From positions 1,845,807 through 1,909,806 of the forward strand of contig OZ218778.1 in assembly GCA_965112635.1 (NCBI GenBank): 64,000 nt of DNA, read 5' to 3'. This document shows positions 8,031 to 63,373 of this stretch, one piece after another. The stretch is from an uncultured bacterium (GTDB taxonomy: Bacteria; Oederibacteriota; Oederibacteriia; Oederibacteriales; Oederibacteriaceae). The position numbers and the translations under genes were made by a program. A model generated the notes under the pieces. The model saw only the letters and a program-made list of their open reading frames with translations. It made no database searches and was not told the DNA's origin. Every line of letters begins with the position of its first letter. Position 1 is the stretch's first letter.

Positions 8031-8426
8031 ATGAACTGGAAAAAGGTTGTTCTTTGTATTTTTATTACCCTTTTCTCCTTATGGGGCAATCTTGCATTCA
8101 GCCAAGGCATTCCATGGCTGGACCAAGATGGGTTGTTTCTGGGCCATAACAAGATCAATCCGCTGAATCATGAGTCTGTATCTGTTGTCTATCATTTGGC
8201 GCAGGACACCCATGTGGTCATAAAAATTTATGATCTTTCCGGCCAGAAACTTATCAGGACATTAGTGGACGGGAATTTTGGAGGGAGTTGGTCATACCAA
8301 GTTTTTTGGGATGGCACCAGTAGAAGTGGAGATGTTGTTGGAAATGGTATTTACGTCATTCAGTTAGTAACCAAAAGTGTAAATATACTCAAATTCATTG
8401 CCGTGGTTAAAACCACAGGCAGTTAA
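8031..8426 (+). CDS. Small secreted protein made only of a signal peptide plus one FlgD-Ig/CTD-like domain (CTD-only minigene; paralog of the giant ORF C-terminus)
   Basis: MNWKKVVLCIFITLFSLWGNLAFSQG signal peptide. NPLNHESVSV..VVIKIYDLSGQKLIRTLVD..VFWDGTSRSGDVVGNGIYVIQL..KFIAVVK closely parallels the last 90 aa of 1..7974. GGGAGG RBS at ~8001. Confidence 0.7.
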   Translation: MNWKKVVLCIFITLFSLWGNLAFSQGIPWLDQDGLFLGHNKINPLNHESVSVVYHLAQDTHVVIKIYDLSGQKLIRTLVDGNFGGSWSYQVFWDGTSRSGDVVGNGIYVIQLVTKSVNILKFIAVVKTTGS

Positions 8427-8432
8427 AGGGGG

Positions 8433-37912: not shown

Positions 37913-39079
37913 ATGTTCCCAGGGAAACGACGAATCATCGCCTTGTTGGTGGTCTTTGGGGCCGTTGCGGGTTGGTCGGCAGTCCATGCTCAGACGAATA
38001 CTGCGACCAATACGGATACTGACACTGAGACGGCTACTGCAACCGCAACTCCCTCCGCTTCCGCGACAACCACCATGACTCTTACAGTCACCCCAACTCC
38101 CACGGCTTATTTATCCCTTATGAAGGTTGTGACGCCCAGCGGGGTTATCCTTCTTCCCGCGACTACCCAGACCCCAGTCACTTTTACCATCAGCTATTCC
38201 AATACGGGAGGCGAAGTTCTGACCAATGTGATGATTTGGGATACGCTTAATACCGGTTTGTGCTACCTGACCACCACGGCAGGGGCAGCCCTGACCGCCG
38301 ACAGCGTCATTTCTTGCACTTCAGGTTCTTTCCTGGTCTGGAACGCGCCATCTCCTCTAGTTCCCGGGAGCAGCGGCAATATTGTTTTTTCAGCCCTAAT
38401 TAATAATGTGCCCTATTACACCAATATAACTAATTTTGCGCTGGCCGGAGCCGACCAGCTAGCCAGCCCCGTGACCTCCACGACCACCAGTTCAATAATT
38501 ATTTATACCCTTCCTCAGGCGGGGAGCGCTCCTCCTACCTTTGTGTTGAATAATTTGTCCCTGCAGTTATCTTGGACCCCCGGCATAGCTGGAAGTTATC
38601 CTATAGCGGGATATCCTGTTTGGCGCAGCGCTGACGGTGGCTTTTCCTACTCGCAAATCACTTTGACCGGAAGCAGCATTACCAGTTGCACCGACCAACT
38701 TCCCGCAGTCCAAACGTTTATTTACCTCGTGAAGGTGATGGATACCCTGGGCAATGAAGTCGCTTATCCGCCTCTTGTCCTTAAACCTTTGCCGGTCAGC
38801 ATGGCACTGGACCACAACAGTTTTAATCCAGCCAAGGGCGGAACCTTGAACGTCAAATATCACCTCAGACAGCTCGGCAGTGTGTCCATCTACATCTATA
38901 ACCTCAGGGGAAATCTGGTCAGGAAATTGGTGGATGACACGGAGACTTTCGGGGAACATGTGGCCCAGTGGGACGGAAAGAACGGACAAGGAGATACAGT
39001 CAGCAGCGGGGTTTATTTGTTCCATTTAGAAGCCGCGGGAGGGGATGCCGTGAACCAGAGAGTGGCGGTCATCAAGTGA
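37913..39079 (+). CDS. Secreted cargo protein: short TxT stalk, DUF11-like and Fn3-like domains, FlgD-Ig/CTD-like C-terminus
   Basis: MFPGKRRIIALLVVFGAVAGWSAVHA signal peptide, then TNTATNTDTDTETATATATPSASATTT. C-terminus NSFNPAKGGTLNVKYHL..VSIYIYNLRGNLVRKLVD...AQWDGKNGQGDTVSSGVYLFHLEA. Its stop TGA 39077-39079 overlaps the ATG of the next gene. Confidence 0.7.
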   Translation: MFPGKRRIIALLVVFGAVAGWSAVHAQTNTATNTDTDTETATATATPSASATTTMTLTVTPTPTAYLSLMKVVTPSGVILLPATTQTPVTFTISYSNTGGEVLTNVMIWDTLNTGLCYLTTTAGAALTADSVISCTSGSFLVWNAPSPLVPGSSGNIVFSALINNVPYYTNITNFALAGADQLASPVTSTTTSSIIIYTLPQAGSAPPTFVLNNLSLQLSWTPGIAGSYPIAGYPVWRSADGGFSYSQITLTGSSITSCTDQLPAVQTFIYLVKVMDTLGNEVAYPPLVLKPLPVSMALDHNSFNPAKGGTLNVKYHLRQLGSVSIYIYNLRGNLVRKLVDDTETFGEHVAQWDGKNGQGDTVSSGVYLFHLEAAGGDAVNQRVAVIK

Positions 39080-40059
39080 TGGATAATTTCTTTCACCCAG
39101 GAAAATGCAGGAAGATCAATCCCGTGATCTTTGCTTGCTTATTTGTATTGTTCCCAACTTTTTTTATTGGGGTCTTTCCCAGCTTGAGCTGGGGCGGGGG
39201 AGCAGGAACAACTGGCGCTGATATTATGGCAGAGGAGTTGGGGGCCAGGCCCAGGGGCATGGGAGGCGCTTATGGGGCTGTGGCCAATGACGCCAATGCC
39301 GTAGATTATAATCCAGCGGGATTAACTCAGATCCTAAGGTCCAATGCTACCCTAACCCACTGGATCGAATTGGACGGCACGACCCTTGATTTCATTAGCT
39401 ATGTTTTGCCCCTGGGAGCCATGGGGACCGTGGCGGGCAGTGCGACCCTCCGTCAAGTCCCTTCCATCAGCAATACGACCGCTGAACCGTCAGTCAATGT
39501 GGACGATATTCTGGTGGGTCTATCCGGGGCAACAAAACTGGAGAATTGGTGGCCTGGTTTGTCGGGCGGAATGTCCTTAAAATTTGTCAGCTCCACCCTG
39601 GGAAACTATACGGCTTATACGGGAGCCCTTGACGCAGGGGTCCTCTTGGAGGACCTGCCCTACCATTCCAAGGCGGCTTTGGCCATGGAAAATTTAGGTA
39701 TGCCTATCAAATACATTGATGTGGCCGACCCCCTTCCGTTTTGCTTAAGGTTGGCCGGCTGCAGTCAGATCTTTGAAGATAGCGTCAAGGAGCTATTAGT
39801 AGCCGCTGATCTCGTTCAACCAATCAATGGCTACGCCAACTTGGACATCGGGGCTGAATTCATTTACCTCGGGTTCGTAGCTTTCAGGGGAGGTTATACC
39901 TTGGATTTTCAGGAAGGAACAAGGGGGCTCGTGGGCGGCCTTGGGATCAAGTATGTTTGGGATAAGACCGATTACAGACTGGATTATGCCTACAACCCTT
40001 TTTACTGGAAAAATAGTTACACGCCCACCCATCTGATCTCTCTGTCCGTATTCTTTTAA
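39079..40059 (+). CDS. FadL/TodX/PorV-family outer-membrane beta-barrel (cargo-adjacent paralog)
   Basis: Signal peptide, GARPRGMGGAYGAVANDANAVDYNPAGL N-motif, C-terminal beta-signal ...LISLSVFF. ATG 39079 shares its A with the upstream stop (TGATG). Confidence 0.65.
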   Translation: MDNFFHPGKCRKINPVIFACLFVLFPTFFIGVFPSLSWGGGAGTTGADIMAEELGARPRGMGGAYGAVANDANAVDYNPAGLTQILRSNATLTHWIELDGTTLDFISYVLPLGAMGTVAGSATLRQVPSISNTTAEPSVNVDDILVGLSGATKLENWWPGLSGGMSLKFVSSTLGNYTAYTGALDAGVLLEDLPYHSKAALAMENLGMPIKYIDVADPLPFCLRLAGCSQIFEDSVKELLVAADLVQPINGYANLDIGAEFIYLGFVAFRGGYTLDFQEGTRGLVGGLGIKYVWDKTDYRLDYAYNPFYWKNSYTPTHLISLSVFF

Positions 40060-41486: not shown

Positions 41487-42929
41487 TTGCTTGTTGGGAA
41501 TAAGGCCTTTTTCTTTGGCATAATATTGACTTTATCATTTGGCAAGCTACAATTTGCTCTAATGAATAACCCTTTGCGAAAAAACCCTTTAAAATCTATA
41601 AAAAATAGAAAAGCGGGAGCCGTTTTTTTATCGGTGCCAGTAGTCATTTTGCTGGTTTTGTCTGGTTTTTTGCCCGCATCCTCCGCTGTAAAAAAAGAGC
41701 CGGCCCGTGTTGTCCCTCAAGATAATTTGAACGGCAGTATCATCGGCATTCCCCTGAGCAAGGAAGTCAACGCCACCTATATCAATACCGGGCTTGTCCA
41801 TGGGGCAGAGCCGGGTATGCAATTCGGCGTCTACAGAAACGGTTCTTTGATCGCCGTATTAGAGATCACCATCGTGATGCAAAGGATGTCCGCGGTCAAA
41901 ATCGTACAGATGGAAAAAGGGGAATCGCTCCAAATCGGCGACCAAGTGGCCTTATTGCGCGGCGCTCCCGTCAGGCTTATCCCTAAGCGTAAGCCTGCAG
42001 AAGAAAGGCCCAAGCTTGCTCTGGGTCCGGAGAAACCGCCTGCTTACCTGCCTCAAGGACCGGCCAACGAACGGATCGCCCTACTGGAAAAACGGGTCGA
42101 TGAACTGGAAAAATTGCTGGCCAAGACTTACGCCATGATCCCCCAAGCCGGACCCCAGGAATTGGCAGTTCCGCCCTTGCCCGAGTTTCCGGTGGCCAAT
42201 GCGCCTTCCGCGACCACCCTCGCTTTGAATAATGCTCCTAAGGAAGAAGTCATTGAAGGCCCGCCTACAGCGGAATTAGAGAAGAAAACTGCTAAGCCAA
42301 AGGAAGAAGAGGTCGATCTTTGGAAGGCCGATACCCCTTATGATAAGATCCCGGAGACAGTACCCCAGACCCAGGAAGAAAAATCGCAGGATCTGGCAGA
42401 CACAGACAACGAATGGTCGTGGGGCACTCCTTATCAAAACAAGAAAGTCGGTCCCAAAGTCAGGCTTGACGTGGCCTTGCTGGATTCGGATGGGGATGAG
42501 TATCAGGGAGGGGCCAAGCTGACCGCCCGCTCCAATTTTGTGGACTGCAAAAATTGGGAACTCAAGATCGTGGACCAGGACGGGAAAGCGGTCAGGACCT
42601 ATTCAGGCAAAGACAAGCTTCCCACCGAAGTCGAATGGGACGGAAAAAACACCGCCTCGGAAAAGGTCAAGAACGGGCTTTACGCCTATGTGTTCAAGGC
42701 CGTAAGCATAGCAGGGGACCCAGCCGCTGCGGACGGTGAAATTCCCAGCCGGAACCCCACCCTGCTGGAAGAAAAGGACTGGAAAGCGGATACTCTGTAT
42801 GCTGATAATGCTCCGGGTACGAGTTCTGTTATCAAGGCGAAGCGCAAAGAAGACGTCGATTATCAAAGCCTTGTTTTGAATTCCGGTAAGATTTTATTTG
42901 CCATTGCCCTGCTTTTGTTGGTCCTGTAA
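41487..42929 (+). CDS. Membrane-anchored hypothetical protein with an internal FlgD-Ig-like domain and a C-terminal TM helix
   Basis: N-terminal hydrophobic segment, Pro/Glu/Lys-rich linker, NWELKIVDQDGKAVRTYSGKDKLPTEVEWDGKNTASEKVKNGLYAYVFKAV (same WDG..G.Y motif as the cargo CTDs), then GKILFAIALLLLVL at the extreme C-terminus. Alternative ATG start at 41562. Confidence 0.5.
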   Translation: MLVGNKAFFFGIILTLSFGKLQFALMNNPLRKNPLKSIKNRKAGAVFLSVPVVILLVLSGFLPASSAVKKEPARVVPQDNLNGSIIGIPLSKEVNATYINTGLVHGAEPGMQFGVYRNGSLIAVLEITIVMQRMSAVKIVQMEKGESLQIGDQVALLRGAPVRLIPKRKPAEERPKLALGPEKPPAYLPQGPANERIALLEKRVDELEKLLAKTYAMIPQAGPQELAVPPLPEFPVANAPSATTLALNNAPKEEVIEGPPTAELEKKTAKPKEEEVDLWKADTPYDKIPETVPQTQEEKSQDLADTDNEWSWGTPYQNKKVGPKVRLDVALLDSDGDEYQGGAKLTARSNFVDCKNWELKIVDQDGKAVRTYSGKDKLPTEVEWDGKNTASEKVKNGLYAYVFKAVSIAGDPAAADGEIPSRNPTLLEEKDWKADTLYADNAPGTSSVIKAKRKEDVDYQSLVLNSGKILFAIALLLLVL

Positions 42930-42935
42930 ACTTCC

Positions 42936-42957
42936 CCGCCCTAAAGGGCGGTGTTTT
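42936..42957 (+). terminator. Terminator-like hairpin (ccgccc-UAAA-gggcgg + tgttttc)
   Basis: Seen in sequence directly after the stop at 42929. Confidence 0.5.
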
Positions 42958-43013
42958 CATAAGGAGGAGATATCTTGTTTGTTCCTCCTCGCTACGCTCG
43001 GGCTGCCGTTTAT

Positions 43014-43040
43014 CCCCGGCCTAAAGGCCGGGGTTTTCTC
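43014..43040 (+). terminator. Second, stronger terminator-like hairpin (ccccggcc-UAAA-ggccgggg + ttttctc); near-duplicate of the first
   Basis: 8-bp GC stem, identical UAAA loop, U-rich tail. Confidence 0.55.
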
Positions 43041-43175
43041 GGCAGTAGTCATAAAACCGGCTTAAAATATTTCGTTGGTTTTGATGCAGAGGGCAAAAGC
43101 GTTTAGTGGCTAGTTCCAAGCAGGAGGCATTCTACGCAGTCGGAAACCGTCTGGGCGCGAGCTTGCAGGATCTCA

Positions 43176-45146
43176 TTGGGTTTAGTCTTATTATTATGCC
43201 CGCTTTTCTTTTGGCTTCAATGCGAAGACGCTTTTAACCTTCCCAAGCAGACCCTGTTGTATCTATTGCTGTTGCTCTCTTTGATCTTCTGGTGGACTAA
43301 ATCCGTGGAGTCTCGATTATTCTGGTATCCCCGGCATCTTGTACAGATCGTCCTGCTGGGCTGGCTGGCCTGCGGGATTTTGTCTGTTTTAGTGAACGGC
43401 TCCTCCGTCCTTGGCTGGGCCGCGTGGATCGAATGGCTGGCGCTCGTTGTTCTTTTTATTCTGGTCTTTGGCAGCATCGAGAACGACAGTCATCTCAATA
43501 TGTATTTTTCCCTGGCTTTAATTGCCTCAGGGTTGTATGGAGTTTATGGTTTTTTGCAATTTTTCGGAATAGACGTGATCCATTGGTCTTCCCTGGGCGC
43601 AGGCAGGATCTATTCGACCCTTGGGAATCCTGACCAATTAGCGGGCCAAATCGCTTTGGTTCTGCCCCTTGTCGCGATCTTTTTTGTTTTAGGCATCAAG
43701 CGTCTTTGGACCCTTCCCCTTTTTATGGTCCTGATTTGCGTCCTGTTCTTTACTCAATCCAAATCGGGACTTTTAGCCTCCTTTATCTCTTTCCTCCTCC
43801 TGGTCGTTGGAGTTCTGGTGTTCATGGGGCGGGCGGTTCTTCGGGAGCATCGGATCCAGGTGGTCACCTTGGTGGTAGTTTTTTTTGCCATAGCTTTTGC
43901 CAGCTTCATGGTTTCTCCTGGCAAAACTTCTCCCTCTTTGCCAACTTCCTTGTTCGATCTTAAACAAAGCTCTGCGTCGATCCGTATTTTTATCTGGAAA
44001 GGGGCGGTCCGGTTGATCGCAGAGTCCCCCCTTATAGGTCGTGGATTGGGGAGTTTTCAGGCGCTTAACCCCAGAGAGCAGGCGCAGGTCTGGCAGAGCG
44101 GAGGTTATGAAAGAACGGGGATCGATGTCCACGATGAGGCCTATGCGCATAATGATTATCTTCAGATGGCTGCTGAAGGGGGCCTGCTAACCCTGGTATT
44201 TTTCCTCGCATTTTTTATACTTATTTTCTCTAACGGGTTCAGCTATTTAAAAAAAGAAACCTTGCGCAACCGCCAGGGGGTCGTGTTGGCCTTAATGGCA
44301 GGATTGGCAGGGTTCCTTACTTTTGCGTTCTTTAATTTTCCGCTTAAGATGCCTTCTGTGGCGGCCACGGCGTTTGCTTGGGGCGCGATCTTGTGCCGTT
44401 ATGACGGTATTTTCGCTTCCGGCCGGGTCGTTGGCCTTGCCAAAGGAATTTTGGTCCATCCTTCCTTGAAAAAAGCGCTTGAGTCTTTGGGGGCCGTGGT
44501 ATTGCTTGCGCTGATGGTCTTTGTTTTCCAGGGATTTTTGGGCGGAGTTTTCTTTAAGTCGGGATTGCGGGCCATTGAAGCCCATAGGTCCCAAGATGCT
44601 TTGCCGTATTTGGATAGAGCCCTCAATTGTAATCCCTATAATATATCTTGCCTGTTCTATGACGCTTTAGCCTGGGAGGAGAGCGGTAACTGGCAGGAGG
44701 CCGTAAAACAATATAAGGCGACCTTGGCCCTTTATCCTTATTCCATGGGCGCTTGCTATAATCTAGCCAATCTGGAAAAAAGAGCAGGACGATATCAAGA
44801 AGCCGAGGAGTATTATTTAAGAGCCCTGGCTATCAAGCCGAACTATACCGACGCTTTGAACAATTTAGGGGCACTTTACTACCTTTGGGGGTCGAGCTTG
44901 AGGGACCCCTCCCTTAAATTGCAGGCCCAGCTTTATTACCAAAAAGCGGAGTTGCAATACGCCAAGGCCTTGCAGTACAGACCGGATTTTGTGGAAGCGC
45001 ATTTTAATTTGGGCGTTATTTACCTTGCGCTGGATGAAAAGGCGGGAGCAGAAAAAGAGTTGAAGCGTGTTCTGGAACTCGACCCGAATTATGACATGGC
45101 CAAGACCATTCTGAACAAGCTCAAGAAGAAGAAATCGAAGAAATAA
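43176..45146 (+). CDS. O-antigen-ligase (Wzy_C)-family polytopic membrane protein with C-terminal TPR repeats; candidate O-oligosaccharyltransferase
   Basis: More than 10 predicted TM helices. Wzy_C signature periplasmic loop (...DVHDEAYAHNDYLQMAAEGGLLTLVFFLAFF). C-terminal TPR repeats (AHRSQDALPYLDRALNCNPYN..., WQEAVKQYKATLALYPY..., YQEAEEYYLRALAIKPNY..., VEAHFNLGVIYL). Apparent TTG start. Confidence 0.65.
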   Translation: MGLVLLLCPLFFWLQCEDAFNLPKQTLLYLLLLLSLIFWWTKSVESRLFWYPRHLVQIVLLGWLACGILSVLVNGSSVLGWAAWIEWLALVVLFILVFGSIENDSHLNMYFSLALIASGLYGVYGFLQFFGIDVIHWSSLGAGRIYSTLGNPDQLAGQIALVLPLVAIFFVLGIKRLWTLPLFMVLICVLFFTQSKSGLLASFISFLLLVVGVLVFMGRAVLREHRIQVVTLVVVFFAIAFASFMVSPGKTSPSLPTSLFDLKQSSASIRIFIWKGAVRLIAESPLIGRGLGSFQALNPREQAQVWQSGGYERTGIDVHDEAYAHNDYLQMAAEGGLLTLVFFLAFFILIFSNGFSYLKKETLRNRQGVVLALMAGLAGFLTFAFFNFPLKMPSVAATAFAWGAILCRYDGIFASGRVVGLAKGILVHPSLKKALESLGAVVLLALMVFVFQGFLGGVFFKSGLRAIEAHRSQDALPYLDRALNCNPYNISCLFYDALAWEESGNWQEAVKQYKATLALYPYSMGACYNLANLEKRAGRYQEAEEYYLRALAIKPNYTDALNNLGALYYLWGSSLRDPSLKLQAQLYYQKAELQYAKALQYRPDFVEAHFNLGVIYLALDEKAGAEKELKRVLELDPNYDMAKTILNKLKKKKSKK

Positions 45147-49783: not shown

Positions 49784-51199
49784 TCACTGGTCGACCATTT
49801 CCGTGACTTCGAGGACTTCCGACAAGGTGGTTACGCCGCTCAAAATCTTTTGGACACCGTCTTCGAACATCGTGACCATGCCGTTTTTGATGGATTCCTC
49901 TTTGATCTTGGAAGCCGTCTCTTTTTCCACCACCAGTTTCCTGATACCTTCGTTCATCTCCAGCAATTCCGAAATGACGGTCCGGCCGCGGAATCCAGTA
50001 TTGAAGCAGTTGCGGCATCCCGGAGCATAAAAGATCTTGTGAGGGGTATGGCCAGTCACTAAAAAGGCTTTTTTGTCATCCTCGGTGGGGACCGTCTCTT
50101 TTTTGCAACGCAAACACAATGTCCTGACCAGACGTTGGCTGATGACCGCGCGCAGGGAGCTGGCGATCAGGTAAGGAGGAACTCCCATTTCCACCAGTCG
50201 CACCACGGCCGATGGGGCGTCGTTGGTGTGAATGGTGGAGAAAACCAGGTGGCCGGTCAAAGAGGCCCGAATGGCGATCTCCGCGGTTTCCAGGTCCCTG
50301 ATCTCGCCGACCAAAATGATATCCGGGTCCTGGCGAAGGATGGACCTCAAGGCGTAAGTGAAGTTGAGCCCGATTTCGCTGTGCATCTGTATCTGCGTAA
50401 CGCCTTCGATCTCGTATTCCACGGGATCCTCCACGGTCGTGATGTTCTTAGTGCCCGTGTTGAGGGCCTGCAGGGCGCTATAGAGGGTCGTGGTCTTGCC
50501 GCTGCCCGTAGGGCCGCTCATCAGGATGATGCCATAGGTCTTGCGGATGATCCGCTTCAGGGCGTTCAACATATGAGGATTAAAACCGATATTATCCAAA
50601 CCCACGACCAAAACCCCTTTATCCAAGATACGCAGGACGACTTTTTCCCCGTTGATGGTCGGTGTGACGGCCACCCGGAAGTCTATTTCGCGGTTCTCCA
50701 CTTTGATATGAAAACTGCCGTCCTGGGGCATGCGGCGTTCCATGATATCGAGCTTGGACATGACCTTGATCCTCGAGACAACGCTCGGCGCCAAGGCCAG
50801 CGGCAAGGTCTGCGCGGGCTGCAGGACCCCGTCCACTCGATAGAACACCTTTAAAAATGTTTTGGTCGGGATGATATGGATGTCGCTGGCCCGTCGTAAA
50901 AAGGCTTCCAAAAGGATCAGGTTAACCGACTTGACCACCGTGCTTTTTTCGTTCTCTTCCTGGACCGAGGCGGAAGGCACGGCGAGGTTGTCTATCTCGA
51001 TCCCCAGCCTTTTGGTCAGCGTCACGCCTTTGTCCACCGCCGTGTTCAACATATGCTGGACGATGCTGACCTTGTAATGGTCTTGATATTCCATGAGTTT
51101 TTTCAGGATCTCACCGCGGGAGCCCATGGCCGCTTCAACCGGCCCCTGCAGGATGGCCTGGAGACGGTCCACCGTGTCCATATCCATGGGGTTTTCCAT
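49784..51199 (-). CDS. gspE: Type II secretion / type IV pilus assembly ATPase GspE/PilB family, ATPase and C-terminal Zn-finger portion
   Basis: Walker A GPTGSGKTTTLYS, Asp box, Walker B, His box, tetracysteine CLRCKK...CRNC. The N-terminal GSPII_E_N domain is missing from this ORF and found in the overlapping upstream ORF 51135..51509. Confidence 0.8.
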   Translation of the reverse strand: MENPMDMDTVDRLQAILQGPVEAAMGSRGEILKKLMEYQDHYKVSIVQHMLNTAVDKGVTLTKRLGIEIDNLAVPSASVQEENEKSTVVKSVNLILLEAFLRRASDIHIIPTKTFLKVFYRVDGVLQPAQTLPLALAPSVVSRIKVMSKLDIMERRMPQDGSFHIKVENREIDFRVAVTPTINGEKVVLRILDKGVLVVGLDNIGFNPHMLNALKRIIRKTYGIILMSGPTGSGKTTTLYSALQALNTGTKNITTVEDPVEYEIEGVTQIQMHSEIGLNFTYALRSILRQDPDIILVGEIRDLETAEIAIRASLTGHLVFSTIHTNDAPSAVVRLVEMGVPPYLIASSLRAVISQRLVRTLCLRCKKETVPTEDDKKAFLVTGHTPHKIFYAPGCRNCFNTGFRGRTVISELLEMNEGIRKLVVEKETASKIKEESIKNGMVTMFEDGVQKILSGVTTLSEVLEVTEMVDQ

Positions 51200-51509
51200 G
51201 GCTGACTATGGTGGTATTGTTCTTTTTCTCTATGGGGATCAACACCTTGCTGGAGGCCATATCCTGGGGGACCATGACCACGAGCTCCGGTTCCGGGGAC
51301 AGGTTCTCCACGTCCAGGAAGGTGATCCCCATCGTGGATGCCCTTAATTTAAGCAGCTGCAACTCCTCCAGAAGTCCCAGATGGAGCAAAGCTTCACCAA
51401 AGGGAACTTTTTGTTCTTCCTCGTAATGGTGGACTTCCTCGAGTTGCTGGGAGGTCAGGATTTTCCTGTGGATTATCTCGTTTTGCAGGGCCAGGTCCGC
51501 GGGTTTCAA
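51135..51509 (-). pseudogene. GspE/PilB N-terminal (T2SSE_N) domain fragment, out of frame with the ATPase body
   Basis: LTSQQLEEVHHYEEEQKVPFGEALLHLGLLEELQLLKL...VLIPIEKKNNTTIV matches the N1 domain; the tail HGKPHGYGHGGPSPGHPAGAG is the wrong-frame read of MENPMDMDTVDRLQ. Confidence 0.6.
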
Positions 51510-51662: not shown

Positions 51663-52583
51663 TTAGAAATCAACGGTCAAAGAAAAGCGATGGGCCTCGC
51701 CTAAACTGGCATAAGGCACAAAGGCGTAATCAAAATGATAATACATCAAACCCAGTAAAAGGGAATAGCCAAAACCCGTCGTGAACATGAAAGGCAGGGA
51801 GGTCTGCTCGATCAAGCCGAGCCTGACTGCCAGGTCCTGCGCGCCCCAACGGGAGTTGTATTCCAATCCCAGATGGATCCCCAAATCCTGGCCAATGAAA
51901 TCATAGGAGGTTTCAGCGGAGGCCAGAATATTGCGGGGTTGTTTTGTTTCTTCCTGCTGGCCGCCGATGTTTTCCATGAGTTCTCCCAAGGCGAACTTTT
52001 TAGCGATCCCTATCCTCAACAGCAAAGGCAGGGAATATCCGCCGAGCTCGGACCCGAGATTCTGCAGGGTCACGCCCAAGGAAGTTGCTTCGGCAAAAGG
52101 CCGGATGATGCCTCCCACATCAAAAGCGAAGCCGCTAAATCCCGCTCCCACAAAATCTTCGTGCAGCAGTTTAGCCGTGATGCCAGCGTGGAAGATCTTG
52201 GAAAAGGTCGTGCCATAACTTAATTCGCCGAACAAGGCTGAGAAATTGAGGCTGTCCGCGCTGGGCACGAACATGCCCGGCAAAGGGAAGGACGGGTCCG
52301 TGGGCGTCATTTCATCGGCTTTGGAAACAGGGGAGGACCCCAGACGATTAACGCAAATGCTGAGGCCGCTATGGTTGGAAAGGGGCAGGGCATAGGCCGC
52401 GCTGTCAAAACTGGTGCCCAGAAACCAGTTGATATGGGTGAAAGAAAGTTCCTGGAAGGACAGGTCGCCGAGGCCGGCCGGATTCCAATAGGTGGACAAG
52501 GTGCCGCTGGCCACGGCGCAATAGGCGTCCCCCAGACTGGACGGCCGGGAACCGGTGGCTATCAAAAACTCTTCGCCAGCCAC
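51663..52583 (-). CDS. FadL/TodX/PorV-family outer-membrane beta-barrel (cargo-cluster paralog); true N-terminus probably lies upstream (~52667)
   Basis: GSRPSSLGDAYCAVASGTLSTYWNPAGL N-motif; C-terminal ...HRFSLTVDF. The in-frame upstream sequence encodes a signal peptide (KSQAIAFLILFSILTHPLNSFAAG) with no canonical start codon. Confidence 0.65.
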   Translation of the reverse strand: MAGEEFLIATGSRPSSLGDAYCAVASGTLSTYWNPAGLGDLSFQELSFTHINWFLGTSFDSAAYALPLSNHSGLSICVNRLGSSPVSKADEMTPTDPSFPLPGMFVPSADSLNFSALFGELSYGTTFSKIFHAGITAKLLHEDFVGAGFSGFAFDVGGIIRPFAEATSLGVTLQNLGSELGGYSLPLLLRIGIAKKFALGELMENIGGQQEETKQPRNILASAETSYDFIGQDLGIHLGLEYNSRWGAQDLAVRLGLIEQTSLPFMFTTGFGYSLLLGLMYYHFDYAFVPYASLGEAHRFSLTVDF

Positions 52584-52780
52584 TGTGCCTGCCGCGAATG
52601 AATTCAGGGGATGCGTCAGAATAGAAAAAAGGATAAGGAATGCGATGGCTTGAGATTTTTGTGTCGTAGGGCTAACCTCCTAAAATATCGGGTCACTATC
52701 GGCAGAGAACCCAGGTATGGCTAGAGAATAATATTATACTACTGGTAAGAGAAGACCTGACCCAGGTTCACCATCATTCT

Positions 52781-53725
52781 TTAGAAGCTCGCTCCCAGGG
52801 ATATTCTTTGGGCATCACCCAGCTGGTCCATAGGCACAAAAGCGTAATCCAGGGCATATGCGCTGCTGCCGATTTCCAGGGCAAGCCCCACCCCGCAGCT
52901 CAGCAGCAGGTAGCTGCTGGTGGACTTGGCTATACCGCCGCGCAAGGCCAGGATGGTGCTGCCCATCTTAGGGGCCCATTCCAGGCCCAAATGAAACCCA
53001 TAGTCCTGGCTGTTCACCAGGTCGGTCAGGTCCAGGCTGGCCAGAATATCTTTGGCCGCCGTCTTATTCTCCGGGGCTAGGGCCAGCAGCTCCTCAATAT
53101 CCGTATAGCTCATCCTTTTGGCTATTCCGGCCCTGGCCATGAGGGGAAACGCAAACCCGTCCAATCCCGTGCTCATATTCTGCACAACCAGACCGGCTAT
53201 ATCCGTATCCGATAGTCTGACCTGCGCTCCCAGATCTCCTGCAAACCCGGTTGCGCTGTCGTCCAGCAGGTTTTCCTGGATACATTTGACATTGGCGCCG
53301 ACATTGAGCATGGGCAGCAGGCCCCAGCCAAACCCTATTCCGCCCATGATAGACCCTACACTGACCGTCTGGTTTGCAGGAGAGTATTGGCCGGACAAGG
53401 GGTTATCAGGGCTAGGCAATGTTTCATTGGTGACCGTGATGTCCGGGATACCCAGACGGCTTACAAACAGGCTTAACCCACTCTTTTTGCCTATGTTGAC
53501 GGCATAAGCCACAGTATCTAGGGAGATATTCTGCATCCACATCAGGTGGGTCAGGGAGATATCCTGGTATTGGAGTCTAGCCAGGCCAGCCGGGTTCCAA
53601 AAAGGGGCGAGAGCGCCGGTGACCACGGCTGTGTAGGCCTCAGCCATACCGCTGGGACGGGAACCGACCCCCAGCAACAGCTCATCGCCCGCGGTCTCTC
53701 CGGCCCCAAAGCAGTGGCTCACCAA
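52781..53725 (-). CDS. FadL/TodX/PorV-family outer-membrane beta-barrel (second paralog); true N-terminus probably lies upstream (~53785)
   Basis: GSRPSGMAEAYTAVVTGALAPFWNPAGL; C-terminal ...QRISLGASF. In-frame upstream RHYRIDKIITLICLCSLCLVSHCFGAG is a signal peptide lacking an ATG/GTG/TTG start. Confidence 0.65.
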   Translation of the reverse strand: MVSHCFGAGETAGDELLLGVGSRPSGMAEAYTAVVTGALAPFWNPAGLARLQYQDISLTHLMWMQNISLDTVAYAVNIGKKSGLSLFVSRLGIPDITVTNETLPSPDNPLSGQYSPANQTVSVGSIMGGIGFGWGLLPMLNVGANVKCIQENLLDDSATGFAGDLGAQVRLSDTDIAGLVVQNMSTGLDGFAFPLMARAGIAKRMSYTDIEELLALAPENKTAAKDILASLDLTDLVNSQDYGFHLGLEWAPKMGSTILALRGGIAKSTSSYLLLSCGVGLALEIGSSAYALDYAFVPMDQLGDAQRISLGASF

Positions 53726-53754
53726 ACACAGGGAACACAGGCAGATAAGAGTGA

Positions 53755-55992
53755 TTATCTTATCAATACGATAGTGCCGCGTGATGTCTGGCCTCCTCCT
53801 GAGACTAGGTAAAAATACACGCCTGGAGCGACTGCCTGACCGTTGTCATTGGTACCGTCCCAGGCGGCGTAGGTGGTGCTGGTGGCTATGCTTTTGACCA
53901 GCAGGGCTGACATGGTCCGTATCTCAATGGTCGAGCCAGCCGGGATATTGGCGAATTTCAGCTCATGGTTCAGGGCTGTTTTGACCCTAAAAGGATTGGG
54001 ATAGACCACCAGGCTGCCGATGCTCACCAGAGCCTTGTTGCTGGTCAGGGGGGAGTAGGGGGTTATCTGGCTGAGGATATCGTTGTAACTCATGCTAAAA
54101 GTGTTTGAAATGAACACCCCGGTTGGGTCATTGCTGTTGACCTTGGCTACAAGATTTTTGCTGACCGTGCTGTTGGGATTGACGTTGGCGATGGTCCAGC
54201 TATACAGGCCCGGCCCAAGCACGCTATATCCGCTGTCAGCGGAAACAAAGGTCATGGTGTTGGGCAGGGTGTCCCAGATAAGGACATTTTGGGCGGGACC
54301 GCCCCTGTTCTGACAGGAAAGGGTCCAGGTCACCTGGTCACCCTGGTTTGCTTTGGGAACATTGGAGGATTTGGCCAGGGTAAAGCTGGCCGGAAGAGGA
54401 GTTGGAGTATTGGTTGGAGTATAGGTGGAGGTAAAGGTATATGTGTTGGTAAAGGTCGGGCCCGCCGTGGACTCACCGGAATATTTGGTCAGGAAGCCCT
54501 GATTATCTAGGCCTTTGACCGTGTAGTAGTAAAAGGTACTTGTACAGGCATTAGTGGCGGTGGAGTCGGTATAAGTAGTGCCACCCACTAAAGAACCGTT
54601 GATCTGTGCATAGCCAGTTCCCTCGGTCGTACTACGGTAAACATTGTAGCCTGAGATGCCGAAGGTGGAGATGGGGGGAGCAGACCAGGTGAGAGATACA
54701 GTAGAAGGACAAGTAATGGTGGCAACCAGACCAGAGGGAGGAACCAAGGTGCCCATGGCATTATAGAAGTTGATGCGGCCGTAGCCCAGGTACTGATTCC
54801 AGCCATTAGCATCATAGGCATGATCGGCGGCATCGACCTTATCCGCGGTTTTGGTGATGCGGGTGGAGACTTCATCATAGGACACGCCGTTGGACATTAG
54901 GACAGCGGCCAGGGCACAAACATAGGGACACGACATGGATGTGCCGCCCCAGTTTGCGTATGCGGAAGGTCCTCCGATTTCAGTGGTCAAATCGCCTCCC
55001 GGGGCAGCGCATATGACATAAGAGCTATAGGTGGAATAGGTTGCCCATTCATCATGGCTTCCCGAGGCGGCTATAGCGAAAGCTATGCCATCTGAGGCAG
55101 GATAAATGAGTTCATAGGTTCCGCTATCCCCTGACGCGGCCATTGCAATATGATGGTCGGTGGAATAGGCATTGCTTATGGCTGTATCAACGCCGGAAGC
55201 GCTCACAAAACCCCAGCTGCAATTAAAGACCTGCGCGCCGTGCTGGGAGGCCCAGTCGATTCCCGCGATAGCGTTGGCCGCTGTCGCGTCCGTCCAATTG
55301 GTCGTGATTTTTACAGGCATGATCAGGCAATTCCAAGCCATGCCCGCTATACCCGTACTATTATTAACTTCTGCTCCCAGTAGTCCTGAGATCTCAGTGC
55401 CATGACCATGGATATCCGTAGTATCAGAACTATTGGAGATCACATTCCAACCCGGGACAATTTTATCCATCAGGTCCACGTGACTGGAATTTATTCCGGA
55501 ATCAATCACAGCAACCACGGTGGAGGTTAACCCTTTGGCCCAGGGCATCATGGCGGGAGTGTTCCAAGCTTTGTCTGTTTGGGTGATAGGAATCGGCCAC
55601 AAGACTCCGCTCTGGTAATAGGTATCGTTGGGAAGGGAGTAGGGGGTATAGGCCGGATGGGCGTAATAATTAGGATAGGCGTTTTTGATCTTAATATGTT
55701 TTTTCGCCTTCCCAGCATAGTCCAGAACATTTTTACCATGGGGTATTTTTAGGTGATAGATATCCAATCTGCCCAGTTTTTTTATAACTTCACAGCCTAA
55801 TTCTTTGGCAATGGCACGCGCTTCTGATTCGGGGACTTTTCCTTTTTCAAATTCAATTATTATCTCCCCTTCCACGTAATCAGGTTTTTCTCCGGCATAA
55901 AGGGGGTGTAATAAAAAGGGGATTATCAAGAAAACAGCCAAAAAAATATACGATATTATTATTCCCAATAGTATGTATTTTTTCATTGGCAA
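53755..55992 (-). CDS. Secreted subtilisin-like serine protease (S8) with Fn3/DUF11-like domains, TxT linker and FlgD-Ig/CTD-like C-terminus
   Basis: Catalytic triad contexts VAVIDSGINSSHVDL (Asp), HGHGTEISGLLGA (His), GTSMSCPYV (Ser); N-terminal propeptide; TFTNTYTFTSTYTPTNTPTP linker; C-terminus VVYPNPFRVK..STIEIRTMSALLVKSI..AWDGTNDNGQAVAPGVYFYLV. Confidence 0.85.
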   Translation of the reverse strand: MPMKKYILLGIIISYIFLAVFLIIPFLLHPLYAGEKPDYVEGEIIIEFEKGKVPESEARAIAKELGCEVIKKLGRLDIYHLKIPHGKNVLDYAGKAKKHIKIKNAYPNYYAHPAYTPYSLPNDTYYQSGVLWPIPITQTDKAWNTPAMMPWAKGLTSTVVAVIDSGINSSHVDLMDKIVPGWNVISNSSDTTDIHGHGTEISGLLGAEVNNSTGIAGMAWNCLIMPVKITTNWTDATAANAIAGIDWASQHGAQVFNCSWGFVSASGVDTAISNAYSTDHHIAMAASGDSGTYELIYPASDGIAFAIAASGSHDEWATYSTYSSYVICAAPGGDLTTEIGGPSAYANWGGTSMSCPYVCALAAVLMSNGVSYDEVSTRITKTADKVDAADHAYDANGWNQYLGYGRINFYNAMGTLVPPSGLVATITCPSTVSLTWSAPPISTFGISGYNVYRSTTEGTGYAQINGSLVGGTTYTDSTATNACTSTFYYYTVKGLDNQGFLTKYSGESTAGPTFTNTYTFTSTYTPTNTPTPLPASFTLAKSSNVPKANQGDQVTWTLSCQNRGGPAQNVLIWDTLPNTMTFVSADSGYSVLGPGLYSWTIANVNPNSTVSKNLVAKVNSNDPTGVFISNTFSMSYNDILSQITPYSPLTSNKALVSIGSLVVYPNPFRVKTALNHELKFANIPAGSTIEIRTMSALLVKSIATSTTYAAWDGTNDNGQAVAPGVYFYLVSGGGQTSRGTIVLIR

Positions 55993-59809: not shown

Positions 59810-62800
59810 TTATCTTATAATGATCACTTTGGTTATTGTTCTGTAGTTCGCAGCAGGGGTGTCCGCCTCCACGGCTGCCAGATACAAACCAGCGGACATC
59901 TTCCCCACATTCCAAGGGATGGCCAGCGTCCCGGACCCCGCAGCGGTGAGGGTCATGATCAAGTTGCCTGCCACATTGTAAATATTGATCCTGATGCTGG
60001 CTGCCTGATTGATATCCACCTTGAAATAAATGGTCTGCGACCCCATCTCCCGATAGGGATTGGGATACGCTTTGGCGTCAAACCCGGGGTTGGAGGAGGA
60101 GACCAGCACCGTGATGCTCTTGGAATAGGTCACGATCCTGCCATTGTAAACCTGGTCGGCCTTGAGGATGTATTCGCCGTTCTGCACCAGGTTCCCCAAG
60201 CTGTTAGTGCCGTCCCAAAGGATGCGGCCGGGGGCCAGAGTCCCGTTGCTGTCGGAGAGATAAAGGCCGTTATCCCCCAACGCGCCCACTCCAACCGTCG
60301 TGTTCTGTCCGGGGCCGGTCAGCAATAAGTTATTGGTCAAGGATATGCCTTCCAGCTGGCCCGAAGTGCTATATCCCTGGTAGATCTCCTTCACCAGCTC
60401 TCCGGAAGTCGTGTAAATGTCCACTTTTAGATGGTTGCCCAAGCTGGTCACTATCACGCTGTTCGTAAAGGTAGTGGCTTTGCCGAACTGCGTCACTTGG
60501 GATTTCAGGATATAGTCTCCGGGCTGCACCATGGCTCCCAGATCGTTGGTCCCGTCCCAGGGGATTTGCCATTGGCCTTTTTTGGTGGTCAGGAGGATCT
60601 CCAGCGGCACTCCGGAATCCTCCATCAGGGAGCCCGACCCGCCCAGCGTAATGGTGAGGTCGCTCAAATCGCCGAAGATCGGAACCCATCCAAGGGTCTT
60701 GACCACCTCGCCGTTGGTCGCGTAGATCACCAGGTCCACATTGAGCACAGGCGGCGTTATCGTTGGCGTGCAGGAGCTGGTCAGGGTCTTGCTCGGGGTG
60801 ACCGTATTGGTCCAGGTCAAAGTCTGGGTGGGCGAAAAGGGAGGAGTGGAGGTGTTGCTGGGCGTAGAAGTGCAGCTGGGCGTGGCAGTATTGCTGGCGG
60901 TCCCGGTATTGGTGAAGGTATAGGAAAAGGTCTTGGTCAAAGTGACGGTATTGGTCAAAGAAGAGGTAATGGTCAAAGAGGGGGTCTGGGTGCTGGAAGG
61001 GGTGTTGGTGATTGAGTAAGTGGGTGTGTAGGTGGTCGTGAGAGTGATGGTCTGGGTATTGCTTTGCGTTATCGTGGCCGAGCCTGTAGGGCTGGCGGTC
61101 AAGGTTGCTGTGACGGTGGACGTGTTGATGAAGGTGAAAGTCGCCGAAGCTGAGGGGCTGACGGTCAAGGTTGCCGTGGGGGTGGGAGTGTTGGTGGAGG
61201 TGTAAGTCGCCGAAGCTGAGGGACTGACGGTCAAAGTTGCTGTGGTCGTAAATGTATTGGTGGCCGTATAGGTTCCGGAGGCGGTAGGGCTGGCGGTAAC
61301 CGTGTAGGTATTGGTGGACGTGAAGAGGTTCGTGTAGGTTGCCGTGAGGGATGGGCTGGAGGTCAGGGTAGCTGAACTGGTGGCTGTGTTAGTGGCCGTG
61401 TTGGTGCTGGTGGCAGACGGGCTGACGGTCATCGTGGTCGTGCTGGTGCCTGTAATGGTGGCCGTGCTGGTGTCGGTGGCAGAGGGGCTGACGGTCATCG
61501 TGGCCGTGCTGGTGGCCGTGTTGGTGGCCGTGCGGGTACTGGTGGCAGAGGGGCTGACGGTCATCGTGGCCGTGGCGGTGGCTGTAATGGTGGCCGTGCT
61601 GGTGCTGGTGGCAGAGGGGCTGACGGTCATCGTGGCCGTGGCGGTGGCCGAGTTGGTAGAGGTGCGTGTGCTGGAGGCTGTCGGGCTGACCGTGGCTGTT
61701 GCGCTGGACGTGGAAGTTGAAGTGATGGTGTTGGTAATGGTGGAAGTGCAGGTGCTGCTGCCGGTCGGACTAGCCGTGGCGGTGGTCGTAATCGTGGGTG
61801 TGCATGTTGAAGTGCTGGTAGATGTGGCCGTATCGGTCGCGGTTGAGGTGCTGGTGTTTGTCGGGGCGCAATAAAGAGCCACTTGCGCGTCATTGGATGT
61901 AGTAGCCACTAAACCCGTGCCCTGGAGAGTACCGGTATTGTCGAGAAGGCCGGGACAGGCGGTCGTGGTCACCATAGCGGCAAAACCAAAAGGCGGAACA
62001 GAGGGCAGGTAGTATTTCACCACCACTTCGCAACTATCCACCGCCGAAGCGTCGGCTGGGCCGCTGACCGTGTTGTAGTAGCTGACGCGCAGGTTGTTCA
62101 GGTCAGCCCAGGTCCAGTTCGTATCCGCGGTGGCATCATAATAGCCGTCATCGGTGTTTCCATCAAAAGTTTCGCGCATAATATCAGCGGGAGCTCCGAG
62201 AAAGCCGTTGTTGGTCCCATCCATGGAATAGTTGAAATACAAGGGGTTGACTAATCCGTCGCCACCGTTAACGCCCTGTATTGTGCTGTGGAACATAACT
62301 CCGGCGATCACATATTGGTTCTGGTTCACCACGCCGGAGGGGCCGATTTGGAACCATCCCGTGTTGCCTGGAGTGAGGGTCGCAAAATTGCCGTCAGGGG
62401 CCCCTATGGTATTACCGGGGTTGGTCCATCCTGGAGCGTTAATGACAGAGGAAATATACTGGTCAGCGTAGTTGAAGGTCACCGAACCTGAGAGCGTGAA
62501 TGTCCAGGAGACCAGGTTGGTCACGGGGTTATAGGTTCCCCCGCCTGTCGCTGAAACAAAGGCCATGCCCGCCGGCACGGTGTCATAGACCGTGACCGTG
62601 CTGGCATCTTCGTCAAAGGAACCCATGGTGAAGGTGTAATTGACCGTACCGCCGGTAGCGGAAACGGTCACATCAGAGGCTTTGCTCAGGTCAATGTCAG
62701 AGCCTGGAAAGAAGAAATACTCCCTGTATAAATTCATATCACCGCAGTTATTATTAATAAGCCCCCATGCGCTTGGTCCGTTCCCCAGGTAGGGCACATA

Positions 62801-63373
62801 ACTATAGGGAACATTAGGCGGAGCAGGCATTATATAATACATCCACTGTCCTATGCCTGGCGTATCGTCAATAGGTGTGCCCCAGGTTGAATCATCAAAA
62901 CCCGGCATCATCCAATTGGCAGGCGGAACCGCCAGCTGACCGGCGCAGCCGCCGGGTGGATTTGTGCAACCACAACCTCCGGGAACATACAAAAATTTTA
63001 CGTTGGCGTCAGGATTGCTATAAATGACCACTGTGGGGGCGTCTGAATAATGGACAGTCAAGCGAAAAGTCACGGTCTGCGGACCGGAAGTATTGGGCGG
63101 ATTGTCAACAGCAATGAGGTTTGTTTGGTTGGGAAGGAAGTCGTGCAAGTCAAGAGTACCGTCCGCGGTGGAATAACTAGTGATTTGGTCAAAGTTCCAA
63201 CCAGTTGTCCCGCCATGAATTCCGTTAATGTAAAAATCTGCGTGGTCGTCTCCGGCTATTTCCAGGTCAGCTGAAACAATGTAGGCAATTGTTTGGCGGG
63301 GAACAAACAGTGATAGCAAACATAGAAAAATAATTTTCTTAAAAAATCTTTCTAGTACCTTTTGTTTAAGCAT
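59810..63373 (-). CDS. Large cargo protein (1,187 aa), paralog of 56088..59744: novel N-terminal head, DUF11-like segment, ~350-aa S/T-alternating stalk with 22-aa tandem repeats, three tandem FlgD-Ig/CTD-like domains
   Basis: Signal peptide MLKQKVLERFFKKIIFLCLLSLFVP. TVYDTVPAGMAFVSA (DUF11-like). Stalk ...TMTVSPSATSTSTATITATATA x4. C-terminal triple domain (VIYATNGEVV..WDGTNDLGAMVQPGDYIL; VDIYTTSGELV..WDGTNSLGNLVQNGEYIL; YPNPYREM..INIYNVAGNLI..WNVGKMSAGLYLAAVEA). Confidence 0.75.
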   Translation of the reverse strand: MLKQKVLERFFKKIIFLCLLSLFVPRQTIAYIVSADLEIAGDDHADFYINGIHGGTTGWNFDQITSYSTADGTLDLHDFLPNQTNLIAVDNPPNTSGPQTVTFRLTVHYSDAPTVVIYSNPDANVKFLYVPGGCGCTNPPGGCAGQLAVPPANWMMPGFDDSTWGTPIDDTPGIGQWMYYIMPAPPNVPYSYVPYLGNGPSAWGLINNNCGDMNLYREYFFFPGSDIDLSKASDVTVSATGGTVNYTFTMGSFDEDASTVTVYDTVPAGMAFVSATGGGTYNPVTNLVSWTFTLSGSVTFNYADQYISSVINAPGWTNPGNTIGAPDGNFATLTPGNTGWFQIGPSGVVNQNQYVIAGVMFHSTIQGVNGGDGLVNPLYFNYSMDGTNNGFLGAPADIMRETFDGNTDDGYYDATADTNWTWADLNNLRVSYYNTVSGPADASAVDSCEVVVKYYLPSVPPFGFAAMVTTTACPGLLDNTGTLQGTGLVATTSNDAQVALYCAPTNTSTSTATDTATSTSTSTCTPTITTTATASPTGSSTCTSTITNTITSTSTSSATATVSPTASSTRTSTNSATATATMTVSPSATSTSTATITATATATMTVSPSATSTRTATNTATSTATMTVSPSATDTSTATITGTSTTTMTVSPSATSTNTATNTATSSATLTSSPSLTATYTNLFTSTNTYTVTASPTASGTYTATNTFTTTATLTVSPSASATYTSTNTPTPTATLTVSPSASATFTFINTSTVTATLTASPTGSATITQSNTQTITLTTTYTPTYSITNTPSSTQTPSLTITSSLTNTVTLTKTFSYTFTNTGTASNTATPSCTSTPSNTSTPPFSPTQTLTWTNTVTPSKTLTSSCTPTITPPVLNVDLVIYATNGEVVKTLGWVPIFGDLSDLTITLGGSGSLMEDSGVPLEILLTTKKGQWQIPWDGTNDLGAMVQPGDYILKSQVTQFGKATTFTNSVIVTSLGNHLKVDIYTTSGELVKEIYQGYSTSGQLEGISLTNNLLLTGPGQNTTVGVGALGDNGLYLSDSNGTLAPGRILWDGTNSLGNLVQNGEYILKADQVYNGRIVTYSKSITVLVSSSNPGFDAKAYPNPYREMGSQTIYFKVDINQAASIRINIYNVAGNLIMTLTAAGSGTLAIPWNVGKMSAGLYLAAVEADTPAANYRTITKVIIIR
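61413..61690 (-). repeat. Tandem 66-bp (22-codon) repeats, about 4.2 copies, inside the stalk of 59810..63373
   Basis: Units begin gcagaggggctgacggtcatcgtggccgtg... at 61413, 61479, 61545, 61611 (plus-strand coordinates, antisense to the gene). Confidence 0.8.

Follow-up and report, generated by a model that had tools for sequence, protein, structure and literature searches.

In bacteria, near-cognate initiation has been described only as a rare exception (infC) or measured in the laboratory, and a natural, recurring ACG start is what would be new. The natural bacterial examples that we know of use AUU, AUA, AUC or CUG, not ACG. ACG starts in plant chloroplasts and mitochondria (e.g. of psbL and ndhD) become AUG by C-to-U RNA editing. 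Near-cognate initiation codons were reportedly classified by Sussman et al. in 1996. In Escherichia coli, AUA, AUC, AUU and CUG support 1-2% of the AUG level, and low-level initiation with Met has been observed for both ACG and AUC (Hecht et al., bioRxiv 10.1101/063800); mass spectrometry of the product of an ACG construct found N-terminal Met and some Thr (bioRxiv 10.1101/063800). Literature searches returned mainly plant organelle editing sites, besides eukaryotic and viral cases, and no report of a natural bacterial gene with an ACG start. Here, we describe two adjoining genes for outer-membrane β-barrels of the PorV/PorQ type (barrel 1 and barrel 2) on the minus strand of a 64,000-nucleotide stretch of contig OZ218778.1 from an uncultured bacterium of the Oederibacteriota (assembly GCA_965112635.1, positions 1,845,807 to 1,909,806; henceforth, the window). 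Both are probably functional genes with a signal peptide which would initiate at a near-cognate codon 6-9 nt past a perfect AGGAGG.

Signal peptides and start regions of the two barrel genes

Coordinates in this section refer to the minus strand. Barrel 1 (52781..53785) has 334 codons when counted from ATC 53785 and 333 from ACG 53782, encodes a C-terminal Phe, terminates at TAA 52783-52781, and contains no internal stop. Its frame is open from 53845, and between the upstream stop and 53725 it contains no ATG, GTG or TTG; the first canonical codons are TTG 53725-53723 and, directly after it, GTG 53722-53720. These two codons (53720..53725) are the starts picked by open reading frame (ORF) and gene callers (public calls P0131, 314 aa, and P0001, 313 aa). 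Both are located in the middle of a hydrophobic core, inside ...RHYRIDKIITLICLCSLC-L-V-SHCFG|AGETAGDE, and the 20 nt upstream of them contain no purine-rich Shine-Dalgarno sequence, which agrees with an earlier note on this DNA, made from the letters alone, where TTG 53725 had been placed in mid signal peptide and not at the real N terminus. Read upstream in frame, the translation is ...RRRPD-I-T-RHYRIDKIITLICLCSLCLVSHCFG|AGETAGDE, an extension that starts with a basic n-region, continues with a hydrophobic core of 13 residues, and closes with a cleavage motif of small residues. The predicted signal-peptide coding region, (M)TRHYRIDK-IITLICLCSLCLV-SHCFG|AG (53705..53785), is based on translation, structural model, and paralogue alignment, and the match to the family profile NF033709 starts at residue 33. 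A lipoprotein signal was dismissed, as no lipobox is present.

Upstream of this region lies the Shine-Dalgarno sequence AGGAGGAGG (53792..53800), and the two candidate start codons, ATC 53785-53783 and ACG 53782-53780 (together 53780..53785), follow 6 nt and 9 nt after its last AGGAGG. Further near-cognate codons in this frame are ATT 53767-53765, ATA 53758-53756 and ATC 53755-53753; ATT 53767 and ATA 53758 are not preceded by a Shine-Dalgarno sequence. The Shine-Dalgarno sequence is embedded in the codons TCA GGA GGA GGC (S-G-G-G) at the 3′ end of the upstream gene, which encodes an S8 subtilase (53755..55986; Pfam and NCBIfam: fervidolysin-like prodomain, fn3, DUF11, and a C-terminal FlgD_ig/type IX secretion system (T9SS)-type sorting domain). 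Because GGA makes up 21% of the Gly codons and TCA 8% of the Ser codons in the window, this spelling is improbable from codon usage alone and looks selected. The protease stops at TAA 53757-53755 and is overlapped by barrel 1, in another frame, by 31 nt if counted from ATC (28-31 nt depending on the start). ATC 53785 at a good spacing, an ATT further down, the lack of an upstream ATG, GTG or TTG, and an overlap of ∼30 nt with the protease gene had all been read off in the earlier note and were found as described there; ACG 53782-53780, ATA 53758-53756 and ATC 53755-53753 come in addition to the codons listed in it. A −1 frameshift from the protease into barrel 1 was rejected, since no X XXY YYZ slippery site occurs downstream of the Shine-Dalgarno sequence and the fusion would bury the signal peptide. 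The protease stop TAA also lies in the loop of a 7-bp inverted repeat (GATAAGA-TAATCAC-TCTTATC; 53744-53764) within the signal-peptide region of barrel 1; the fold of the wider region around this repeat was not significant (z = -1.45).

Barrel 2 (51663..52667), a PorV/PorQ-family paralogue 35% identical to barrel 1, is located 113 nt past the barrel 1 stop codon, comprises an intact ORF of 334 codons counted from ACG 52667, and also ends with Phe. The same defect had been noted for this adjoining paralogue, and it is indeed present: the last in-frame stop, the intergenic TAG 52682-52680, overlaps AGGAGG 52681-52676 (together 52676..52682), the barrel 2 frame opens directly after it, and the first canonical codon, GTG 52583, is found three residues past the predicted cleavage site. 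From the stop to the hydrophobic core, the in-frame codons are GAG GTT AGC CCT ACG ACA CAA AAA TCT CAA GCC, of which AGC, CCT, ACG and ACA are 2, 5, 8 and 11 nt away from AGGAGG. Of these four, ACG alone has a single mismatch, which leaves ACG (52665..52667), at 8 nt, as the one near-cognate codon suitably spaced from the Shine-Dalgarno sequence. Starting there, the predicted signal peptide (52593..52667) reads (M)TQKSQ-AIAFLILFSIL-THPLNSFA, followed by AGTVAGEEF (in full, TTQKSQAIAFLILFSILTHPLNSFA|AGTVAGEEF). Read-through of the TAG was discarded because a second in-frame stop lies upstream, and so was rescue by a homopolymer indel, since neither A4 nor A6 in place of the A5 at 52660-52656 brings a start codon into the shifted frame. 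The region between the barrels (52733-52767) contains a small hairpin just past the barrel 1 stop and a perfect TATAAT (52738-52733) ∼50 nt before the barrel 2 Shine-Dalgarno sequence; as read by eye, barrel 2 may have its own promoter there. A scan for consensus promoters and terminators found nothing above shuffle expectation and called no full promoter at 52733-52767.

The position of both N termini can be gauged from P0011, a paralogue encoded in the same genome beyond the window (54% identical to barrel 2 by BLASTP and 51% in a three-way alignment). P0011 starts at ATG behind a weak AAGGA, and the end of its signal peptide (MINSIKTIAAALALALIAVEAQA|AGTVAGEEFF) matches precisely, in the alignment, the ends of the barrel 1 and barrel 2 extensions, at a junction, AG(T/E)xAG(E/D)E, common to all three proteins. 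Because the ends coincide with that of the signal peptide of an ATG-started protein, we infer that the extensions of both barrels are real signal peptides, and the same alignment places the predicted N termini of barrel 2 and barrel 1 within a few codons of ACG.

That the encoded proteins are outer-membrane barrels is indicated by their scores against NF033709, the NCBIfam model of the PorV/PorQ family (92.8 bits for barrel 1 and 101.6 bits for barrel 2; cut-off 90), whereas neither reached any of the equivalog cut-offs for PorV, PorQ or PorV2. Modeling of barrel 1 with AlphaFold2 from 33 sequences gave a confident structure (predicted local distance difference test, 90.4; predicted template modeling score, 0.84) with 14 long strands; a hydrophobic helix spans residues 7-18, a stretch of low confidence follows at residues 20-27, and the barrel itself begins near residue 30. 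Its best matches in the PDB were PorV chains of the Flavobacterium type 9 translocon (8gl6_F, E = 2e-12, and 6h3i_F), followed by FadL and TodX. The nearly invariant columns of the family are retained in both barrels, and their terminal Phe corresponds to the β-signal usual for outer-membrane proteins. Among ∼50 family homologues, nearly all carry an N-terminal signal peptide, and the few exceptions look like truncated or misextended calls. Lacking a signal peptide, a barrel of this kind could not reach the outer membrane and would be biologically senseless.

The start codon would be ACG 52667 for barrel 2 and either ACG 53782 or the adjoining ATC 53785 for barrel 1, and initiation at ACG/ATC compensated by a strong Shine-Dalgarno sequence appears to be the best explanation of these start regions. 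Compensation is suggested because both barrels have a perfect AGGAGG, whereas the ATG-started P0011 has only AAGGA. In this scheme, strong pairing between the Shine-Dalgarno sequence and 16S rRNA would hold the 30S subunit over the start site, where the initiator tRNA (anticodon CAU) would pair with ACG or AUC with one mismatch. The protein would begin with (f)Met, leave via the Sec pathway, and be cleaved upon export, at CFG|AG in barrel 1 and at SFA|AG in barrel 2. If efficiency resembles that in E. coli (roughly 0.1-3% of the AUG level), expression would be deliberately low and may be sensitive to initiation factor 3 (IF3). The proposal of initiation at AUC, AUU or ACG made in the earlier note thus holds insofar as a non-AUG start is the best explanation; it does not for AUU, as ATT 53767 lacks a Shine-Dalgarno sequence, and it is ACG, not ATC, which the genes have in common.

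Recurrence of AGGAGG-ACG at candidate gene starts

A third gene in the window may share this arrangement. On the plus strand, AGGAGG 43122-43127 is followed, after 6 nt, by ACG 43134-43136 (together 43122..43136), a candidate start in frame with a gene for an O-antigen-ligase-like (Wzy_C) and TPR membrane protein (43134..45146; Pfam). Its first canonical start, TTG 43176, would yield MGLVLLLCPLF..., a first transmembrane helix truncated to ∼14 residues with no basic residue before it, and public calls begin as far downstream as 43305 (P0135, 613 aa). Of six aligned Wzy_C homologues, five have 16-25 residues ahead of an invariant Pro-Leu in this helix and one a far longer N terminus; the corresponding number here is 23 for the ACG start and nine for the TTG start. 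All public calls for barrel 1, barrel 2, and the Wzy_C gene lack the signal peptide or the first transmembrane helix. Upstream of the Wzy_C gene and past the gene at 41562..42929, two GC-rich hairpins with T-tracts, CCCGCCCTAAAGGGCGG-TGTTTTC and CCCCGGCCTAAAGGCCGGGG-TTTTC, occur at 42925-43050 (plus strand), with an AGGAGG...CCTCCT inverted repeat between them; they look like tandem terminators.

ACG 6-9 nt past AGGAGG is common to both barrels and the Wzy_C gene, whereas ATC and ATT are not. In genes of the window with AGGAGG and a canonical start (17036, 25083 and 40908), the corresponding spacing is 7-8 nt. All other protein genes of the window (∼36, including ∼15 with signal peptides) have, upon inspection, credible canonical starts, and gene coverage leaves no unexplained gaps. 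In the six frames together, 62 ORFs of at least 100 codons have 15 or more in-frame codons ahead of their first canonical start. When these extensions were ranked by hydrophobicity, the two barrels came first and third, the second being a spurious antisense ORF; the pattern thus goes beyond chance. The three 5′ regions showed no DNA similarity in an alignment, and folding of the three RNAs revealed no significant or shared structure (z = +1.0, -1.45 and +0.5). The only match in a scan of the window with Rfam and for tRNAs was a tRNA-Gly.

When strong Shine-Dalgarno cores were sought that have a near-cognate codon after them, in frame with a long ORF and with no canonical start upstream, four AGGAGG-ACG matches emerged, namely barrel 1, barrel 2, the Wzy_C gene, and a GT2 gene (on L002, beyond the window); the other hits were spurious or had a canonical TTG at once downstream. 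Three of the four have support at the protein level. The ACG of the GT2 gene was rejected as a chance match, the gene beginning at a TTG which overlaps the upstream TGA and has its own AGGAG. In 86 kb (both strands), four of the seven AGGAGG-N5-10-ACG motifs fall, in frame, within the 0.68% of positions that precede a first canonical start (calculated for ORFs of at least 250 codons), which corresponds to a binomial probability of 7e-8 for four matches and of 1e-5 for three. ACG also accounts for 4 of the 12 in-frame codons found at N5-10 spacing after AGGAGG.

A wider claim, which we consider conceivable but doubtful, is that ACG serves this lineage as a regular start codon of its own, in several per cent of the genes (3 of ∼40 here, all of them envelope genes) and always with a perfect AGGAGG. 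If true, it would imply relaxed discrimination by IF3 or the initiator tRNA, or a dedicated initiator-like tRNA for ACG, or C-to-U editing of ACG to AUG in the mRNA, and gene callers using table 11 would systematically truncate such genes.

Sequence integrity and rival explanations

The locus is present in two further public assemblies, contig_40024 of ENA ERZ25039471 and the Logan assembly of ERR11523656. In both, the start regions of barrel 1 and barrel 2 are identical to those in the window, and the Wzy_C start region has the same bases in the Logan contig. Over 6.4-6.9 kb, the window has a single indel against the ENA and Logan sequences, the extra C at 51204, besides one substitution (54759) against Logan alone, neither of them near the starts; over 36.8 kb, comparison with the ENA contig yielded zero substitutions and one indel. 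The extra C, probably an assembly indel, splits the gene for a GspE/PilB-type secretion ATPase (49784..51509, minus strand), which is intact (574 aa) in ENA and Logan. The same genome record also contains P0130, a frameshifted copy of P0011.

Several points weigh against near-cognate initiation of the barrels. ACG lies outside the start set of table 11. T-to-C is a common transition, and ATG-to-ACG is also the expected form of start loss. The closest paralogue, P0011, uses ATG. Searches of the protein collection and four collection scans (two of GTDB representative genomes, two of JGI metagenomes) yielded no orthologue of more than 32% identity beyond this genome. AGGAGG as such is not enriched in the window (38 sites versus ∼31 expected); what counts is its position, not its frequency. 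One of the four in-frame AGGAGG-ACG matches, that of the GT2 gene, is demonstrably due to chance, and because this false positive shows that the null model is too generous, the enrichment figures are supportive, not decisive. For the Wzy_C gene, TTG is preceded by AGGA at 5 nt, a ribosome-binding site usable in this genome, and the odds that this gene starts at ACG are therefore rated as about even. A small residual doubt stems from the three assemblies possibly sharing one read set. Finally, ACG ranks with the weakest near-cognate codons of E. coli, at 0.1-1% of the AUG level (bioRxiv 10.1101/063800).

The low activity of ACG in E. coli is at the same time one of the arguments for the main rival, according to which the barrels are recent pseudogenes or silenced genes whose ATG mutated to ACG and/or ATC, with signal peptides, Shine-Dalgarno sequences, and ORFs left as relics. 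A single transition would suffice for ATG-to-ACG, P0011 has ATG at the aligned position, and redundancy among five PorV-like genes in 86 kb could have relaxed selection. We nevertheless regard start loss as unlikely. Mutations have far fewer chances to hit a start codon than to cause a nonsense or frameshift lesion, yet two or three of ∼40 genes would show a start lesion only, and no other gene looks broken in 86 kb of the ENA assembly. Both ORFs are intact over 334 codons and still encode the residues conserved in the family as well as the terminal Phe, and barrel 1 was modeled with confidence. Moreover, both barrels have a Shine-Dalgarno sequence of the strongest class, held by few genes here; decay would account for this only by coincidence, whereas compensation predicts it. 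That the codons were never lost, a true ATG having been systematically miscalled with C for T, is highly improbable. Judged by the ENA contig, the window assembly does have indel errors, at least two in number (the C at 51204, and P0130 versus P0011), which suggests a long-read draft, and all assemblies may derive from one read set. However, three assemblies agree at all three sites, without a single substitution over 36.8 kb of window and ENA sequence; the three sites share no motif beyond ACG, and dozens of normal ATG starts are found nearby. A single-base indel, in homopolymers or elsewhere, creates a start codon upstream of either signal peptide in no frame, and ATC 53785 would stay unexplained. 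The earlier view that the two paralogues make a random sequencing error less likely is thereby supported, and such an error is very unlikely.

Termination-reinitiation, an explanation for barrel 1 only, would have ribosomes that stop at TAA 53757-53755 restart at ATA 53758 (an ATAA overlap, comparable to ATGA) or at ATC 53755, giving a short signal peptide (MITLICLCSLCLVSHCFG). The ATA/TAA overlap geometry is present, the 7-bp hairpin brackets the stop codon, and other cargo-barrel pairs of this genome are tightly coupled (TGATG at 39079; GTG 7 nt past TAA at 8433). Nonetheless, reinitiation is quite improbable: the signal peptide would be left without a positively charged n-region, no Shine-Dalgarno sequence occurs at a suitable spacing (AGGAGGAGG being 33 nt upstream), a non-canonical codon is still needed, and barrel 2 and the Wzy_C gene, neither of which is overlapped by an upstream ORF, would be unexplained. 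As a general mechanism, the coupling to the upstream gene considered in the earlier note does not fit, because barrel 2 begins 113 nt past the barrel 1 stop, directly after an in-frame stop, and because the Wzy_C gene sits behind two terminator-like hairpins. Least probable of all is that the annotated starts (TTG 53725 or GTG 53722 for barrel 1; GTG 52583 for barrel 2) are correct and that the barrels have no signal peptide. These codons are the first table 11 starts and are used by public gene calls; none of them has a Shine-Dalgarno sequence, they fall inside or after a recognisable signal peptide of a kind that is complete in nearly all homologues, and the resulting barrel could not be delivered to the outer membrane. 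A proteomic N terminus past the TTG, offered earlier as evidence against an upstream start, does not discriminate, since cleavage at CFG|AG leaves the mature N terminus downstream of the TTG under every model.

Gene neighbourhood and comparison with known systems

A PorV-like barrel gene behind a cargo gene with a C-terminal sorting domain is found repeatedly in this genome, at 8031/8433, at 37913/39079, in the protease/barrel 1 pair, and in a pair of a CLIPPER-domain protein and P0011, ∼20 kb past the end of the window. These four pairs occupy 8031-10085, 37913-40059 and 52781-55986 in the window and 8360-10999 on L002; their barrels are PorV/UPF0164-like, each tightly linked to or overlapping its cargo gene (TGATG at 39079), and the sorting-domain cargo was recognized by FlgD_ig/Por_Secre_tail matches. 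In total, 86 kb contain five PorV-like genes. The repeated pairs point to dedicated modules of cargo and barrel in a lineage that does not belong to the Bacteroidota. None of the T9SS core genes (SprA/Sov, PorK/L/M/N) was identified within the window. The lineage appears to be barely sampled, because its SecA is only 64% identical to that of a metagenome-assembled genome (MAG) of candidate division FCPU426 and to that of a Microflora Danica MAG.

Two other features of the window stand out by composition. A giant ORF of more than 2650 codons (1-7974, plus strand) runs off the window start and encodes an almost pure Thr-X dipeptide repeat (TATNTATQTATSTAT...), with an extreme strand composition (GC skew, -0.38; AT skew, +0.39). 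The gene at 59810..63373 (minus strand), for a 1187-aa secreted protein with DUF11, FlgD_ig and Por_Secre_tail domains, contains tandem DNA repeats at 61074-61690 which are 77-84% identical at offsets of 66 and 132 nt.

If ACG initiation is genuine and recurrent in this barely sampled phylum, the bacterial set of start codons would be lineage-dependent and extend beyond table 11. Annotation pipelines would then silently truncate secreted and membrane proteins in such genomes, and the combination of a weak codon with a strong Shine-Dalgarno sequence may serve to tune the expression of envelope proteins.

As proteins, the barrels resemble PorV/PorQ, the T9SS shuttle (6h3i_F, 8gl6_F), and FadL-type 14-stranded barrels in profile membership, predicted fold, signal peptide, and C-terminal aromatic residue, and like PorV/PorQ they adjoin a cargo gene with a T9SS-type C-terminal domain. 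In contrast to the solved PorV structures, to which they are only 16-17% identical, and to the PorV/PorQ of Bacteroidota, they belong to a host lineage related to FCPU426, in which cargo-barrel pairs are repeated and, within the window, no T9SS core genes are seen. The overlap between the 5′ end of barrel 1 and the 3′ end of the protease gene is reminiscent of stop/start coupling (ATGA, TGATG), the latter motif being present in the sister pair at 39079; it differs in its length of 28-31 nt, its internal Shine-Dalgarno sequence, and its non-canonical start, and barrel 2 is not overlapped at all. With the ACG starts of plant organelles, the barrel genes share a genome-encoded ACG exactly at the required N terminus and a bacterial-type translation apparatus. 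Editing in organelles, however, needs PPR/DYW factors, which to our knowledge do not occur in bacteria. The barrel genes also resemble the near-cognate (class II) starts of E. coli (AUU in infC and pcnB; AUA, AUC, AUU, CUG and ACG in measurements), which likewise combine a one-mismatch codon and the initiator tRNA with an upstream Shine-Dalgarno sequence, and for which low output, discrimination by IF3, and compensation by a strong Shine-Dalgarno sequence would be shared features. Unlike in infC, no comparable autoregulatory logic is evident in the barrel genes, and what sets the present locus apart from the E. coli cases is the recurrence, within 64 kb, of one rare codon in two or three genes for envelope proteins.

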